DNA from: Minisyncoccota bacterium
Lineage (GTDB): Bacteria; Patescibacteriota; Minisyncoccia; Phycocordibacterales; SBAW01
DNA length: 64,000 nucleotides
Assembly (NCBI GenBank): GCA_035546615.1
Contig: DASZWM010000003.1
Coordinates: forward strand, 64,001 to 128,000
Direction: 5' to 3'
Positions 1,867 through 61,519 of this stretch are shown in pieces; the first letter of the stretch is position 1; every line of letters begins with the position of its first letter. Made by a program: the position numbers and the translations under genes. The notes beneath the pieces were generated by a model. That model was not told where the DNA came from. It was given only the letters and a program-made list of their open reading frames with translations, and ran no database searches.

Positions 1867-2358
1867 TTATTCTACGACCCTGATAGTCCCGTAATTCTCC
1901 TCGTCGCGGTGGTTGTGATAGTTGAACGAGCCCACCTTGTCGAAGGTGAAGGAGAACGTGTCGCCGGTCGAACACTGATCAAACGGCTTGGAGCCCGCAT
2001 AGTCCGCCGCGCAGTGCTCGGAACGGGTCGTGCCGTCGTAGCCGTCGTGGTCGGGGTGCGGGGCGCTGCCGATCCACATATCGGTACCGCTCCGGTTGAC
2101 CCAGGTAACGGTGCCGCCTTTCTTGATAGTTACGGTCTGGGGCTGGAAAGCGGCAGCGGCGGTATACGTGACGGTTGCTTCCATAGGAGCCTGCGAGACA
2201 TCGCCCAAGCCCTGATCTTCATTCGCGGAACCCGCCGCCGCCTGGGTATCTTCTGCCCCCGGAGCCGGAGTGCCGGTTTGCGACGTGACGTACCAGTATC
2301 CCCCGCCCACGACGATAATGAGGATGGCAAGCATTCCTACAGCTGTTTTTATATCCAT
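1867..2358 (-). CDS. secreted cupredoxin-like domain protein (tentative)
   Basis: N-terminal TM/signal anchor, then a beta-rich domain with His/Cys residues (TVTIKKGGTVTWVN..HNHRDEENYGTIRVVE) resembling a plastocyanin/EfeO-type cupredoxin fold. Confidence 0.4.
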   Translation of the reverse strand: MDIKTAVGMLAILIIVVGGGYWYVTSQTGTPAPGAEDTQAAAGSANEDQGLGDVSQAPMEATVTYTAAAAFQPQTVTIKKGGTVTWVNRSGTDMWIGSAPHPDHDGYDGTTRSEHCAADYAGSKPFDQCSTGDTFSFTFDKVGSFNYHNHRDEENYGTIRVVE

Positions 2359-2424
2359 ATAGTCAAGAGATTACGGGAAGTAATGGACAATGAACGCTAC
2401 ATACTCAAGTATAACACGCGAGCC

Positions 2425-3573
2425 TTATTGGATGAGATTCCAGGTATTCTGGTCTTCCCCGCCGTCGAATTTGAAGAATGCGACGCCCCTGATGCCGAGC
2501 TTTTTGGCGAGCGCTATCTTTTGTGCGATGGCGGTCGAGTCGCTCCACGAAAGGATATTGATGGTCTGAGCGCCTGCGGCGGCGGGACCCGCCGCCGCCG
2601 AGGACGTGCGCACGCCGGCAACGGTCGGCGTAGACGTGGCGAGGTAGGTCAGCTGTAGCTCGCCGGCGCTGTTGCGGATGGGCTTGAGGCCGAGGCTCAT
2701 CGCGAGGTCGGTGCCGTACTTGGGATTGAACGCCCAGAGCCTGCTATAGCTGTAGCCGGAGGTCGGAAGCGGCGTCACGGTGTATTCGTAGCCGTAGGTC
2801 GGGATGCCGAGCACAAGCTTTTTCTTGGAAATGGTCTGCGCGGCCAGAGTCATCACCTTCTCCACCCACGCAACGTCGGCCACGGGAATGTACGGACCTG
2901 CGGCGGTACCATTGAGCTTAACGTCGATGGCGCCCTGGTCGTACGCCATTATCTGCACGCGGTCGCAGTACTTGTTTATCTGCACGAAATCGTTGGCGTA
3001 AACGCCGGCGTCCTTGGGCGGCGTGCCGTCGTAGCGCGAGTCCAGCGGGGTGCGCGACTCGATAGTGCAGTAGACCCACTTCTGCCCCATCCGCTGGTAG
3101 AGGCCCTTGAGGAAGAGCGAGAAATAATCGCGCGTCTCGGCGTATTTGCTTTCGAAATCGATATCGATGCCGTCGAAGCCCTCGCGCACTACGAGCGCCG
3201 CCACGTCGTCCTCGAGCTTCTGGCGCGTCGTTGCGTTTGAAAGGATGCGGTGCATTGAGGCGCCGTCGCTCCACATGATGGTCGGAATATAGCGCACGCC
3301 GTTCTTCTTCGCGGCGGCGCGGAGGCTCTTCCACGGTTCGTCGGCAAAGCCGGTCGGGTCGGACAGGACGCCGGTGTTGGTAACGATGTAGCCGAACGGA
3401 TGCACGGCCGTGAGGCTTGCGATGCGCGGCAATACGTCGGCGGTGCCGGTTGCGGCGCGCCAGTACGGGATCCAGCCGGACACCTCAAGCGCGGACTTGA
3501 GAGGCGCGGCGTGCGCCGCGCCGGGGAGTGCCATGAGAAGGCCGAGTATGGAGAATAGGAAAAAACGCTTCAT
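2425..3573 (-). CDS. glycoside hydrolase family 18 (chitinase-like) secreted protein
   Basis: Signal peptide (MKRFFLFSILGLLMALPGAAHA) and GH18 catalytic motif DGIDIDFE (DxxDxDxE). Confidence 0.7.
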   Translation of the reverse strand: MKRFFLFSILGLLMALPGAAHAAPLKSALEVSGWIPYWRAATGTADVLPRIASLTAVHPFGYIVTNTGVLSDPTGFADEPWKSLRAAAKKNGVRYIPTIMWSDGASMHRILSNATTRQKLEDDVAALVVREGFDGIDIDFESKYAETRDYFSLFLKGLYQRMGQKWVYCTIESRTPLDSRYDGTPPKDAGVYANDFVQINKYCDRVQIMAYDQGAIDVKLNGTAAGPYIPVADVAWVEKVMTLAAQTISKKKLVLGIPTYGYEYTVTPLPTSGYSYSRLWAFNPKYGTDLAMSLGLKPIRNSAGELQLTYLATSTPTVAGVRTSSAAAGPAAAGAQTINILSWSDSTAIAQKIALAKKLGIRGVAFFKFDGGEDQNTWNLIQ

Positions 3574-7469: not shown

Positions 7470-7928
7470 TTAAGGCCTCCCGCCCTGCATCTGCGTGGCC
7501 CCTGCGGGCCGTATCTGCACCGACTGCGCGGTAATGCTGCCGTCGCTGTTGCCTGAGCCCGTAACGACGACGCTTGTTCCCGGCGCCAGGTCGTCGAGCG
7601 TACCCGCGGCGCTCTTGGTAACCGCTGTCGAGGCGCTGAGGAGCACTATTTTCGTGCTGCCGTCCGCCATTTTCAGCGTTATGCCAGACGCGTCCCTGGA
7701 AAGGACTTCGCCGGCGGTAAAGCCGCCCCCCACGCGCGCATTCATGCCGCCCTGGAAGCCCGCTCCCCCGCCCGTACCCATGCCGCGGGTGAATGCGGCG
7801 CCCGCGAACTGTCCGCGGCCCTGGCTGCCGCTCTTTGCATACAGCGTGCCGGCCCAGAACGAGGCGCCGACAAGCACGACCGCTATGACGCCCGCGATGA
7901 TCTTCGTATTGTTGCTTATGGTGTTCAT
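7470..7928 (-). CDS. Gly-rich secreted/membrane-anchored hypothetical protein
   Basis: N-terminal TM, Gly-rich low-complexity region (GMGTGGGAGFQGG) and a C-terminal beta-rich segment. Directly downstream of the MacB permease gene. Confidence 0.45.
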   Translation of the reverse strand: MNTISNNTKIIAGVIAVVLVGASFWAGTLYAKSGSQGRGQFAGAAFTRGMGTGGGAGFQGGMNARVGGGFTAGEVLSRDASGITLKMADGSTKIVLLSASTAVTKSAAGTLDDLAPGTSVVVTGSGNSDGSITAQSVQIRPAGATQMQGGRP

Positions 7929-20357: not shown

Positions 20358-20418
20358 GCTGCCAGACTTGGAACTTCGATACCCAAGATAAACGGATCCA
20401 GAGTCCCCTATTGTCGCT
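20358..20418 (-). pseudogene. partial degenerate copy of the tRNA-Gln 3' half
   Basis: GCTGCCAGACTTGGAACTTCGATACCCAAGATAAACGGATCCAGAGTCCCC aligns over about 50 nt with the genuine tRNA-Gln 3' half immediately upstream. Confidence 0.5.
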
Positions 20419-20430
20419 TTATGCGCAAAG

Positions 20431-20501
20431 CTGCCAGACTTGGATTCGAACCAAGATAAACGGATTCAGAGTCCGTTGTCCTACCATTAGACGATCTGGC
20501 A
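20431..20501 (-). tRNA. tRNA-Gln (anticodon CUG)
   Basis: Manual fold: acceptor UGCCAGA/UCUGGCA with U1-A72 and G73 (Gln identity), anticodon arm ACGGA-CUCUGAA-UCCGU, T-loop UUCGAAU. Confidence 0.85.
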
Positions 20502-27615: not shown

Positions 27616-27687
27616 CGCGGGGTGGAGCAGTAGTAGCTCGCAAGGCTCATAACCTTGAGGTCGCAGGTGCAAGTCCTGCCCCCGCAA
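27616..27687 (+). tRNA. initiator tRNA-fMet (anticodon CAU)
   Basis: Near-identical to E. coli tRNA-fMet at the ends: CGCGGGG...CCCCGCAA with the C1-A72 mismatch. Anticodon loop CUCAUAA. T-arm GCAGG-UGCAAGU-CCUGC. Confidence 0.85.
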
Positions 27688-27694
27688 CAAGCCA

Positions 27695-27737: not shown

Positions 27738-27934
27738 TGCGAGGGAAAGAAGCGAACTGCTTCGCTTCTGGCAGGACTTGCAGGCCGGAGCGCGACCTCA
27801 TTTTCTTAGAGGTATTCCTCTTAGAAAATGGAAGTACTCCTGTGGTGTTGTTTTGCACTTGCAAAACCGCGAGGCCGGGCTGCAGCCGAGCCGAGTGACG
27901 ACGAGGCGAGAGCGAAGGCCAAGCCTATTCTCCC

Positions 27935-53522: not shown

Positions 53523-53595
53523 GGGCGTGTAGCTCAGTTGGTAGAGCAGCCGACTTATACTCGGCCGGTCCCAGGTTCGATCCCTGGCGCGCCCA
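53523..53595 (+). tRNA. tRNA-Ile (anticodon UAU)
   Basis: Manual fold: GGGCGUG acceptor, D-arm GCUC-AGUUGGUA-GAGC, anticodon arm GCCGA-CUUAUAC-UCGGC, T-arm CCAGG-UUCGAUC-CCUGG, discriminator A. Confidence 0.75.
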
Positions 53596-53669
53596 CAAAA
53601 TACAGAAACACCTGCCCTGCGGCAGGTTTTGTGCTACTGTTGTGCGGGTTCATTAACAGGGAGGGCGCG

Positions 53670-59447: not shown

Positions 59448-59909
59448 ATGAATCTCATCGAGCACAAGAAGGCGCGATTGGACTATGAGTTCCTCGAGGA
59501 ATACGAGGCGGGATTGGAGCTGCTCGGCTTCGAGGTAAAGAGCCTGCGCGCCCATCACGGCAAGCTTGAAGGCGCGCATATAGTGGTGCGCTCCTCTGGC
59601 CGGGCTCAAAATGTCGAGGCGTACATCGTAGGCATGTCCATCCCCCCCTACCAGGCCGGTAACACGCCCAAGGACTACGAAGCCGACCGCACCCGCCGCC
59701 TGCTCCTCACTAAAAAAGAGCTTGCGGGGATTGCCGGAATTGAAGGCCAGAAAGGCTTGACAATAGTACCTGTTTCGGTGTATAATAAAGGGAAGGTATT
59801 GAAGCTCCGAATAGCCGTCGCGCGCGGCCGTAAGCAGTACGACAAGCGCGCCGTCTTAAAGAAGCGGGATACCGACCGCGACATCCGCAGGACCTTGAAA
59901 AACGCTTAA
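59448..59909 (+). CDS. smpB: SsrA-binding protein SmpB
   Basis: Characteristic SmpB fold sequence with a C-terminal basic tail. 153 aa. Confidence 0.9.
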   Translation: MNLIEHKKARLDYEFLEEYEAGLELLGFEVKSLRAHHGKLEGAHIVVRSSGRAQNVEAYIVGMSIPPYQAGNTPKDYEADRTRRLLLTKKELAGIAGIEGQKGLTIVPVSVYNKGKVLKLRIAVARGRKQYDKRAVLKKRDTDRDIRRTLKNA

Positions 59910-59947: not shown

Positions 59948-60321
59948 GGGAGTGACAGGCTTAGACAATATAAATAATAGTTCGCACGCAAGGGAGAAGC
60001 GGGGACCTTCTTTAAAAAGCCCCAAACCATAACTGCAAAATCAGTTACATCGCCGTATTTCACGGTGAATGACCTCGCTTTCGCTACCGCAAGGAGCTAA
60101 GCGAGCATTGGCTCTGCAACGCTCGTGAGCGGAGTACCAATGTTATAACACCGAGATCGATCGGCTAGCCTGCTTGCCTAGCCCTTCTAAACTAAAGCTG
60201 CGATCCGGTCTTATTTCGTCTGCTTCTTACAACCGGGTCTAAGAAACAAAAGCAGCCTATCTCTTGTAGACCTGCGCTCTATCTTATGTTGCACGGCGGT
60301 TCAACTCCGCCCACTTCCACC
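59948..60321 (+). ncRNA. ssrA: tmRNA (SsrA), standard one-piece
   Basis: Immediately downstream of smpB. 5' GGGAGUG pairs with 3' CACUUCC, including the G3-U70 Ala identity pair. T-arm GGCGG-UUCAACU-CCGCC with a T-loop identical to E. coli tmRNA. Discriminator A then CC. PK1-like GCGGGGACC..AAAAAGCCCC. Candidate tag frame GCA(60035)..UAA(60098-60100). Confidence 0.7.
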
Positions 60322-60333
60322 GGTAAAAACATT

Positions 60334-60360
60334 GCGCCCTCATGGGCGCTTTTGTTTTTT
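60334..60360 (+). terminator. intrinsic terminator after tmRNA
   Basis: GCGCCC-UCAU-GGGCGC followed by UUUUGUUUUUU. Confidence 0.7.
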
Positions 60361-60616
60361 CGGTGGAAGTGAGTACTGTGCCTGAGCACAGTACGAGGCG
60401 GAGTTGAAAGGCGCAGCGATGCCCTGCACTGGCAGGGCCGCGAGCCGGGGTCGCGAAAACTTTTTGCGACGGCAAAAAGTTATTTGTGACCAACCCTTCC
60501 CCACTTCGGCCCACACATACCAAAAGCTGTCCTCGATGGGCAGCTTTTGGTGTTCTTTACCGCACACTTTTGTCTTAGTAATATGGCATTAGGCTGAACA
60601 AAAGGGAGTGCGTGCG

Positions 60617-61024
60617 ATGCCTATACGACCTGAAGCATCCGGCCGCATCAGGATCACGAAAGTACCTGATGGCGAAGCCCCGCTTGAAGTCCGGCAGGCA
60701 TGGGTGGGACTTGAACTGCCCTGCGGACCCATCTGTGGCTACGGCGACGAACCTCCGAAGGGAGTGCTGTCGAATGAGCCCATCAAGAAGAACATGTACG
60801 GCTTCGACGTTCCCCAGCGTGAAGCGCTGGAAATTCTGGAAGCCAGCTCTCCGGAGGCGGCGGCCTGGTGGCGAACACATGGCTTCCCCGAAGGCAACGA
60901 CTATTTCGTCTTCGATCGCCACTGGGCCGAAATCATCAGCGGCGTCACGATGCAGGAGATTACCGTGTGGGACAACATGGAGACCGGACGCTACCAGCCC
61001 GTGTTCACCTACACTCCCCCGTGA
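60617..61024 (+). CDS. hypothetical protein
   Basis: RBS AAGGGAG 8 nt upstream of ATG 60617. 135 aa, no known domain. Preceded by a ~250-nt highly structured leader. Confidence 0.4.
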   Translation: MPIRPEASGRIRITKVPDGEAPLEVRQAWVGLELPCGPICGYGDEPPKGVLSNEPIKKNMYGFDVPQREALEILEASSPEAAAWWRTHGFPEGNDYFVFDRHWAEIISGVTMQEITVWDNMETGRYQPVFTYTPP

Positions 61025-61096
61025 CAACTTCTCACCGCAAAAAACGCGAACGCCCCGGCAACAACCGGGGCGTTTCACTTTTTACGACATTGAATC

Positions 61097-61519
61097 CTAC
61101 TTCCCCTTCATGCGGGAGGCGATGTGGAAGCTCATGTACGCGAGGTAGGTCGTGACCGCCACGCCGAACCACGAGAGCCAGGTCGGGACGTCCCAGTCGC
61201 CGAGCATAAGGTCGGCGCCGGTAAATATCCTCCAGATGTGGGCGATAGCCACAACAGTGAACACTACTCCGACGAGGAATATGTAGGAGCGCTCGCGCAT
61301 GGCCGGGATCTTCCCCACATGCCACGCGTAGTGCACCAGGATAATAAAGAGGGCGAGGTCGAAGATAAGGTTCGGCAGCAGCATTTCGGAGGTTACCGAC
61401 ATGCCGAAGAACGAAACCGACTTCAGGTGCTGCTGGGAGAACCAGAGCAGCCAAAGGAAGTCCGCGGCAACGAGGCCTGCGGCGAACTTCGCTACCTCAT
61501 GCAAAGAACTGTTTTTCAT
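61097..61519 (-). CDS. hypothetical membrane protein
   Basis: 140 aa, 4 TM. Confidence 0.45.
   Translation of the reverse strand: MKNSSLHEVAKFAAGLVAADFLWLLWFSQQHLKSVSFFGMSVTSEMLLPNLIFDLALFIILVHYAWHVGKIPAMRERSYIFLVGVVFTVVAIAHIWRIFTGADLMLGDWDVPTWLSWFGVAVTTYLAYMSFHIASRMKGK

Follow-up and report, generated by a model that had tools for sequence, protein, structure and literature searches.

Downstream of ssrA, the gene for transfer-messenger RNA (tmRNA), a 64,000-nucleotide stretch of the Minisyncoccota bacterium contig DASZWM010000003.1 (assembly GCA_035546615.1, positions 64,001 to 128,000; hereafter the window) carries an inverted copy of the gene's own 3′ tRNA-like end. This copy is the antisense 5′ arm of an element of about 140 nt (60361–60501) that starts right after the ssrA terminator, and we regard it as close to certain that the arm belongs to a recurrent, conserved and strand-specific structured element at the 3′ flank of tRNA-type genes. 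The original prediction, made from the window alone, had raised a scar left by a genomic island or phage, adding that the same inverted-repeat architecture in relatives would speak against an integration scar; a conserved inverted-repeat element is indeed found downstream of ssrA across relatives. Coordinates are those of the window, on the plus strand unless stated, and related loci are designated by L numbers.

The inverted copy falls into two exact blocks. The 12-nt sequence TTCAACTCCGCC (60300–60311) is answered by GGCGGAGTTGAA at 60397–60408 (arm b), the exact complement of the T-stem 3′ strand and T-loop, and the 11-nt sequence CACTTCCACCG (60312–60322) by CGGTGGAAGTG at 60361–60371 (arm a), which exactly complements the acceptor 3′ strand plus ACCG. 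The segment of ssrA that is complemented (60300–60322) thus comprises the T-loop, the T-stem 3′ strand, the acceptor 3′ strand, the discriminator and CCG, and excludes the T-stem 5′ strand. Between the arms stands a 9-bp hairpin, hp1 (60373–60394; stem 60373–60381/60386–60394), with the sequence GTACTGTGC-CTGA-GCACAGTAC; in relatives it occupies the same position, mostly with a CUGC loop. The exact 11-nt inverted repeat that brackets the terminator and the 9-bp hairpin that interrupts the copy had both been recognised correctly at the outset. The accompanying description, a degenerate copy of the T-arm plus acceptor 3′ strand, needs amending: the antisense copy is real, but it is exact in two blocks and leaves the T-stem 5′ strand uncovered.

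The 11-nt pair extends through the terminator into 28-nt arms with 79% complementarity, so that the terminator (60323–60360: an A-tract, GCGCCC-TCAT-GGGCGC and a T-run) forms the apex of a long hairpin made of the gene's 3′ end and the antisense arm. This intrinsic terminator is homologous to the ssrA terminators of L004 and L002, the homology stopping at 60360 and 60359, respectively. Positions 60290–60412 are predicted to fold into a three-way hairpin of −77.4 kcal/mol, compared with −38.2 ± 3.7 kcal/mol for shuffled sequences (z = −10.7). Each half of the inverted copy has exactly two occurrences in the 64 kb, one within the gene and the other within the copy, and the whole 23-mer has no other match in the window at up to three mismatches, with none arising from shuffles; the shuffles and the unique occurrence of both halves rule out a chance origin. 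No direct, attachment-site (att)-type copy of the ssrA 3′ segment was found in the window at up to three mismatches.

Recurrence was assessed in 80 smpB–ssrA loci from genomes and 80 from metagenomes, together with contigs of the closest relatives. The census of arms was restricted to the 80 ssrA genes with enough downstream sequence, and an arm was counted when at least 10 nt lay at the same offset. On this basis, an arm antisense to the locus's own ssrA 3′ end is present at the same offset behind the terminator in 22 of 80 loci, mostly split by a hairpin at the same place, and is absent from 72% of ssrA loci. All 13 type-A cores (see below) that adjoin ssrA are accompanied by such an arm. 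The arms also track the alleles of their genes: when compared against 40 distinct T-loop/T-stem 12-mers, the arms of 12 of 20 loci fitted their own allele strictly best, and those of 16 fitted it best or tied, as in the pairs TTCAACT/AGTTGAA in the window, TTCGACT/AGTCGAA in L284 and CTCTC/GAGAG in L283. The arms of L218 and L228 match a foreign allele perfectly. The complement runs into the gene-encoded trailer (CCG in the window, CAA elsewhere) and not into CCA, and the arm therefore matches the gene or its precursor rather than the CCA-tailed mature RNA. This also rules out a retroviral-type primer-binding site, which had been considered. By eye, the informative mismatches between arm and gene were too few for wobble enrichment to distinguish pairing in RNA from pairing in DNA.

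Behind the arms lies a structured core (60406–60491), which was delimited as a region of approximately 87 nt by iterative nhmmer searches and then by a covariance model, R1, to which the window copy scores 102.3 bits. The proposed structure comprises P2 (3 bp, 60410–12/60444–46, flanking a GCA/GA internal loop), P2a (60416–18/60439–41), a distal hairpin hp2 (60421–27/60432–38), P3 (60449–55/60485–91, GGUCGCG/UGUGACC) and hp3 with a GACG loop (60458–67/60472–81). Across copies, a GGA/GA-type internal loop and a P3 of the form GGUCGCG/YGUGACC are conserved and the GACG loop of hp3 is frequent. When the structure was tested on 12 instances, 93.4% of the cells were paired, compared with 30–42% in slid-partner controls, and 24 of 31 pairs had changed on both sides; none of 500 shuffles matched the observed pairing and covariation, and RNAalifold recovered the same helices independently. 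One G·U pair in P3 is invariant (12/12) and would be A·C on the opposite strand, so the folded strand is the plus strand, in the sense of ssrA. Consistent with this, all 28 covariance-model matches are in sense with the adjacent gene. These comparisons point to a strand-specific, covariation-supported structured RNA fold. By itself, the window element has a predicted fold of −79.9 kcal/mol (z = −7.2) that is closed by the arms.

A search of Rfam 15 over 60280–60660 (E ≤ 10) returned nothing at the gathering score besides the cut-off end of ssrA. The best other match was to the permuted tmRNA family (tmRNA_permuted, RF04321), at 20.1 bits against a gathering score of 47; with the upstream gene complete, a permuted tmRNA was rejected. 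A group I intron in the T-loop was likewise discarded, ssrA being complete and the element being about 140 nt long, with two hairpin arms and no Intron_gpI match.

The element recurs within the window behind a different gene. The second copy (27738–27920), located by nhmmer and scoring 37.6 bits with R1 (E = 3.4e-6), follows the initiator tRNA-Met (27616–27688), which carries C1×A72, and its terminator. Its arm a, TGCGAGGG (27738–45), is roughly complementary to the acceptor 3′ strand of that tRNA, and its arm b, GGCAGGACTTGCA (27770–82), complements the tRNA's T-loop and T-stem 3′ strand exactly; between them lies hp1 with a CTGC loop (27748–69). Extra hairpins (27784–27834) separate arm b from the core (27835–27920). 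These are the only two copies in the 64 kb and both lie behind tRNA-type genes. Short-armed copies stand behind tRNA-Ile(UAU) in L002, L056 and L217, and in the last of these the tRNA gene and two tandem copies are all on the minus strand. All copies from related loci with a known upstream flank, a tally from which L124 and L258 were left out as they are cut by the end of the locus, lie behind a tRNA or tmRNA gene, a partial ssrA 3′ copy (L027, L059) or another copy. A dispersed repeat of the repetitive extragenic palindrome or miniature inverted-repeat transposable element type was rejected, given just two window copies, both behind tRNA-type genes, and the similar placement of related copies. 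A tRNA-Ile gene with anticodon UAU is also present in the window (53523–53596, plus strand), near smpB, as in most Paceibacteria relatives.

Several features suggest that the element has moved. Intact copies end in a direct copy, about 19 nt long, of the ssrA 3′ end from the T-loop's middle to the discriminator (for example CGATTCCGCCCATCTCCAC in L052, L022, L027 and L059), so that intact elements lie between the gene's 3′ end and this direct copy (L052, L059, L027, L022 and L030). The direct copy is present in 10 of the 22 armed loci, and in L007, L203, L283 and L218 it is followed by host-type terminators or flanks. At the corresponding place the window has a truncated 3′-arm remnant, CCAACCCTTCCC (60490–60501), identified by comparison with L052, L059, L022, L027, L030, L007 and L283. 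Tandem units, in the order 3′ copy, terminator, arm with hp1, core, are seen in L031, L032, L039, L217 and L124. We also observed that in L027 (5914–6810) and L059 (6075–6775) the module of terminator, arm, core and 3′ arm is duplicated near-identically with 500–730 nt of other DNA in between, and that the second module copy begins at TCCACA, the last bases of ssrA.

The distribution of the element among close relatives is uneven. Positions 60361–61097 of the window have no counterpart in L004 (79% SmpB identity), which has an unrelated gene instead, and L283 (82%) and L284 (88%) carry different core types at the same site. Core similarity correlates only loosely with SmpB similarity (r = 0.32), compared with r = 0.86 for the tmRNA body, and the window and L006 have cores that are 90% identical and tmRNA bodies that are 57% identical. 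Core similarity is decoupled from host phylogeny.

The suggestion that the ssrA 3′ end serves as an integration hotspot held up well. In L284, the closest relative, an island of about 6 kb (2028 to about 7960) separates ssrA from the terminator, arm and core. It encodes a 516-aa large serine recombinase (1986–3536, minus strand; Resolvase, Recombinase and Zn-ribbon domains), the 3′ coding end of which overlaps the ssrA 3′ end in antisense. Recombinases homologous to it are found at the ssrA 3′ end in at least eight other loci (L013, L037, L050, L054, L068, L238 and L265, with a remnant in L017). At the right junction of the L284 island, TGTATG is followed directly by TCCACAAG and the repeat is only about 6 nt; a separate 13/14 copy of the T-loop/T-stem, GGTTAGACTCCGCC, lies at 7744–7757. 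An arm beyond an island was seen in L284 only, the far ends of the other islands lying outside the fetched flanks. Comparison of the region downstream of ssrA across relatives, which had been proposed as a check for island insertions, thus did reveal islands at the site, but it assigned the inverted copy to the conserved element.

On this evidence we give about an even chance to the reading that the element is an integrase-less (cis-mobilizable or miniature) tRNA/tmRNA-targeting integrative element, which moves horizontally among Paceibacteria and carries a read-through structured RNA that pairs with the 3′ end of the gene. Recombination provided in trans would insert or exchange the element at the 3′-terminal segment of the genes for tmRNA, tRNA-fMet and tRNA-Ile(UAU); candidate agents are large serine recombinases of the DsiB-like kind, which relatives encode at this site, or homologous exchange via the repeated 3′-end segment. 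The element would be transcribed as a structured RNA by read-through from the upstream gene, and its arm would pair with the 3′-terminal 23 nt of the pre-tmRNA or pre-tRNA, giving a three-way hairpin of about 45 bp with the terminator at its apex. In the predicted fold of the read-through transcript, this hairpin sequesters the tmRNA T-arm and acceptor 3′ strand. Our best guess is that the pairing might mark read-through transcripts for duplex-specific processing or insulate the gene from its flank. The mode of movement, the transcription and the effect of arm–gene pairing are those parts of the scheme that we infer.

A number of observations weigh against this reading. The gene is separated from the element by an intrinsic terminator, and the adjacent sequence of the window showed no promoter of sigma-70 type for the element, so transcription depends on unproven read-through. 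Covariation is common to RNA and folded single-stranded DNA and does not discriminate between them, and the mosaic pattern, in which the core is conserved and hp1, arms and terminators vary, would also suit an ancient functional RNA that is passed on vertically under purifying selection. We found no autonomous element that combines the module with a recombinase; in L284 the module is on the host side of the island junction. Two pattern scans of IMG/VR, covering 128 loci, for a viral or episomal form yielded one real copy, in L124. No circular form, excision product or pair of empty and filled sites was recovered, the site of the closest relative, L284, being occupied by its island, and insertion boundaries are consequently inferred from non-identical relatives. 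Finally, the census covers the loci around smpB plus one 64-kb window, and all sequences are from metagenome assemblies.

The L124 copy (IMGVR_UViG_3300033463_005745, 2860–3319, minus strand) consists of at least two tandem units, beside genes for a serine acetyltransferase-like protein, an epimerase and a cytidine deaminase, a context that looks cellular. The element may extend beyond the sampled Paceibacteria. A second candidate from the scans, L285, proved to be a chance match inside a coding region.

One rival explanation, akin to the long-range 3′-processing structure offered as the alternative in the original prediction, is a host-encoded, cis-acting RNA, in which the 3′ flank would pair with the precursor's own 3′ end for 3′-end formation or processing (for example via an RNase III-type duplex), or to strengthen termination or insulate the gene, and which is inherited vertically and lost in many lineages. 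Complementarity to the gene-encoded trailer (CCG or CAA, not CCA) would fit a precursor or gene, the hairpin is very stable (−77.4 kcal/mol), the core sequence is strongly conserved with covarying stems, as expected of a functional RNA, and the element is kept in very small genomes; moreover, the arm still follows the active gene in copies with a decayed 3′ arm (those of the window, L242, L071 and tRNA-fMet). What makes us consider it unlikely overall is the patchy and mobile-looking distribution: the element is missing from 72% of ssrA loci, including the close relatives L004, L003 and L005, it forms tandem arrays and is associated with direct 3′-end copies of other alleles, and the same site in close relatives holds different core types, with core similarity decoupled from host phylogeny. 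Properly terminated transcripts, furthermore, would never include an element that lies beyond the terminator. A further rival is a recombination site acting at the DNA level, analogous to integron attC sites or the CTX-phage attP hairpin. Here the palindrome of gene 3′ end, terminator and arm with extrahelical hp1, perhaps together with the core, would be read by a recombinase as folded single-stranded or cruciform DNA. The bulged palindrome, the cassette-like tandem units of L124 (3′ copy, terminator, arm, core), the modules of L027 and L059 duplicated from TCCACA onwards with small cargo in between, and the use of the same site by recombinases in relatives are all in keeping with such a site, and since DNA hairpins tolerate G·T wobbles, the strand bias is compatible with single-stranded DNA. 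We nevertheless think it rather improbable: no integron-type or Xer-type recombinase is linked to the element here, serine recombinases act on double-stranded att sites without long hairpins, the invariant G·U and the conserved loop and junction nucleotides are more typical of RNA, and the IMG/VR scans uncovered no episomal form.

Alternatively, the element could be a stand-alone, tRNA-like small RNA. Arms a and b would pair with the element's own 3′ arm to form an acceptor/T-stem-like minihelix closing a three-way junction, to be excised by RNase P and RNase Z and to exert an effect in trans, for instance by mimicking the tRNA-like domain or competing with it. In intact copies (L052, L059 and L027), the 5′ arm and the 3′ arm are indeed complementary, forming a 7-bp acceptor and T-stem stack with a discriminator, and the arms close the fold of the isolated window element (−79.9 kcal/mol, z = −7.2). 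A precedent exists in phage DS6A, whose mini-tmRNA consists of the tRNA-like domain only and inhibits host tmRNA (PMC11915505). In many copies, however, including that of the window, the 3′ arm is truncated and the 5′ arm is still perfectly complementary to the gene; the arm makes A3–U70 in place of G3·U70, so alanine identity would be lost, and a fully paired T-loop would leave no tRNA elbow, all of which renders this explanation very unlikely. The notion of a one-off scar, for which an earlier island or phage would have left behind a displaced attR-type piece of ssrA that was subsequently inverted, is essentially excluded. It is true that ssrA is an integration hotspot in these genomes and that the copied segment, from T-loop to 3′ end, has the typical extent of an att identity block. 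The orientation is wrong, though, as integration yields direct repeats; the copy is exact in two blocks rather than decayed; and the split inverted architecture recurs with hp1 and a conserved core behind it in 22 of 80 ssrA loci of relatives, each fitting its own gene, and behind tRNA genes, so a simple scar does not account for it.

A more far-reaching proposal is that the element stands for a novel class of structured RNA, one in which the target is recognised through base pairs formed with the 3′-terminal segment (approximately 23 nt) of a tRNA or tmRNA gene or its precursor. The arm might guide insertion of a protein-less mobile element, or it might act on the adjoining stable RNA, for example by sequestering or marking precursors of tmRNA, initiator tRNA or tRNA-Ile(UAU). 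No described element or motif of this kind was found in Rfam 15 or in the literature searched. We regard the proposal as a long shot; if true, it would mean a programmed association of a selfish RNA module with the translation-rescue and initiation RNAs of the candidate phyla radiation (CPR).

The identity of the host gene is secure. As first proposed, ssrA is a standard, non-permuted tmRNA gene adjoining smpB. It extends from 59948 to 60322 and matches Rfam RF00023 over the full model (1–374 of 374) with 93.9 bits against a gathering score of 47 (E = 2.8e-35), the covariance-model search placing it where the original prediction had; orthologues are present in 84 related loci. Read from the sequence, the 5′ GGGAGUG pairs with CACUUCC (60312–60318), G3·U70 included, and the T-arm consists of GGCGG (60295–60299), the loop UUCAACU (60300–60306) and CCGCC (60307–60311). 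The discriminator, A60319, is trailed by CCG; CCA is thus incompletely gene-encoded and the mature 3′ end probably lies at A60319. The upstream gene smpB (59448–59909, plus strand) encodes an SsrA-binding protein of 153 aa (Pfam PF01668, E = 1.4e-41), 100% identical to a protein annotated as SmpB of Candidatus Paceibacterota, and ends 38 nt before ssrA. Inside smpB, about 160 nt 5′ of ssrA, a TTGACA-18-TATAAT site (59757–59786, plus strand) agrees with the sigma-70 consensus at 12 of 12 positions and is probably the ssrA promoter.

The tag reading frame, GCA at 60035 to UAA at 60098–60100, had been put forward with reservations and turns out to be right. It specifies AKSVTSPYFTVNDLAFATARS, and near-identical peptides are encoded in the same register in relatives, the five closest reading AKSV[STKA]SPYFSVND[LF][ST][FL]ATARA. 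The window tag ends in ARS, and the canonical Ala-Ala degron end, a typical though not strictly defining feature of tmRNA tags, is not present. Among 87 homologous tags from related loci (the SP[YFI] family), the last residue is A in 78, V in eight and G in one; the usual endings are ALA, ARA, AKA and AFA, and only two end in Ala-Ala. As only 2 of 87 do so, the absent Ala-Ala end is a lineage trait, in agreement with one of the two options originally offered. The terminal Ser, encoded by GCA AGG AGC TAA where relatives have GCG CGA GCC TAA, is the sole feature of the tag peculiar to the window genome. The near-absence of Ala-Ala endings in the lineage is relevant to the question of which protease recognises its tags; an ftsH gene is a neighbour of smpB.

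ARAGORN, the other check suggested for the tmRNA, gave a divided result: it called no tmRNA in the window and did call orthologues with the same tag frame in relatives. Because Rfam and the orthologues concur, the miss is a false negative, and the Ser-ending tag probably explains it. A further 15 tmRNAs of relatives, located by nhmmer, were also uncalled by ARAGORN, a practical consequence for annotation.

The element is followed by a host-type flank (60502–60551), which includes a second terminator-like hairpin (60519–60551) and is shared with L283: positions 60502–60549 are 86% identical to 2000–2048 of that locus, where the flank trails a displaced ssrA 3′ copy. Another conserved 3′-flank motif, GAAGCGAAGCGACTATAWTTTTGTAGGATGYCG followed by a hairpin and then CGRCGCCAC, stands right after ssrA in L001, L011, L020 and L022. 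It recurs after the displaced copy in L283 (1965–2020) and, more weakly, in L218, and includes a TATAAT-like box; the window apparently keeps only its last part (60502–60518). No recombinase or integrase is encoded between ssrA and infC in the window. Two small open reading frames (ORFs) between the element and infC, ORF138 and ORF140, have no Pfam match. ORF138 (60608–61024, plus strand) looks like a host gene because it recurs 3′ of the element in L007 and L012 (33–34% identity) and because the contig of a relative that shares the gene order has a called gene of matching size and position. ORF140 (61097–61519, minus strand) is membrane-like and 86% identical in L004, and L284 has a DNA match at 76%.

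Elsewhere in the window, a direct partial tRNA duplicate (approximately 20358–20406, minus strand) lies downstream of tRNA-Gln(CUG) (20430–20501); it begins at the anticodon stem and runs to the 3′ end, and its T-loop is altered (GTATCGAAGT in place of TTCGAA). By its sequence, it has the appearance of a classic displaced-3′-half (att-type) footprint. A second T-arm-like piece, TTGGTTCGAATCCTAG, follows about 195 nt downstream of the duplicate.

The interest of the element lies in its being a small, protein-less module, in ultra-small CPR genomes, that fuses an antisense copy of the target's 3′ end to a covariation-supported fold. Should the element be mobile, it would illustrate how sequences without an integrase survive and spread where spare DNA is almost absent; should the pairing have a function, an element or its host would gain a new means of acting on essential stable RNAs at their 3′ end. 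At a practical level, palindromes of this type may confuse the annotation of terminators and att sites.

Mobile DNA classically lands at genes for tRNA and tmRNA, and the traces it would be expected to leave are direct repeats and integrases. A scheme for classifying the sublocations that such integrative elements target is said to have been set out by Williams in 2002. Among other known structures, the attC sites of integrons and the attP hairpin of CTX phage are recombination sites made of folded single-stranded DNA. They resemble the window element as imperfect palindromes with extrahelical features, with structure more conserved than sequence and in cassette-like tandem arrays. They differ from it in that we found no link to IntI or Xer and in that the window palindrome is built from the target gene's 3′ end and terminator, with a separate core that has sequence-invariant junctions. 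The primer-binding sites of retroviruses and long terminal repeat retrotransposons complement about 18–23 nt at a tRNA's 3′ end (acceptor 3′ strand, T-stem 3′ strand and part of the T-loop), whereas the complement in the window enters the trailer (CCG or CAA), is split by a hairpin and has no reverse transcriptase nearby. In the processing stems of rRNA and tRNA operons and in 3′ external transcribed spacers, a flank pairs with the end of a stable-RNA precursor and is possibly cut by duplex-specific RNases; these stems, unlike the element, occur universally throughout a lineage and form part of the transcription unit, and they are neither tandemly repeated nor horizontally exchanged.

Group I introns in the T-loop and permuted tmRNAs (PMC11915505) share with the element the presence of extra sequence at the ssrA T-loop or 3′ end, and a weak match to the permuted tmRNA model takes in the T-arm, the acceptor 3′ strand, a loop and GGAAGUGA. 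The upstream ssrA is complete and standard, however, and the element falls short of the size of a group I intron and matches no Rfam intron; the introns described in a preprint on Patescibacteria tRNAs are anticodon-loop group I introns. Tycheposons of Prochlorococcus are serial tRNA/tmRNA-targeted insertions in streamlined genomes (bioRxiv 10.1101/2020.12.28.424599). With the element, tycheposons and their kin have in common streamlined genomes, tRNA/tmRNA hotspots, partial tRNA direct repeats, serial insertion that pushes older elements outward and degraded remnants, but they encode tyrosine recombinases and cargo, and neither an antisense arm nor a structured RNA module has been described for them. 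The ssrA islands of Dehalococcoides insert midway in the T-loop, encode a DsiB serine recombinase of about 520–540 aa on the reverse strand by attL, are flanked by a 20-bp direct repeat from the mid T-loop to the 3′ end and occur as tandem and as integrase-less, cis-mobilizable islands (PMC3146451). Islands of the same kind are present in the window's relatives L284, L013, L037 and others. The text of that study nowhere uses 'inverted repeat' or 'hairpin' and mentions neither an antisense copy nor a structured core (PMC3146451). By comparison with these islands, the window element is about 140 nt long, non-coding and without a recombinase, and it combines an antisense copy of its target with a structured core.

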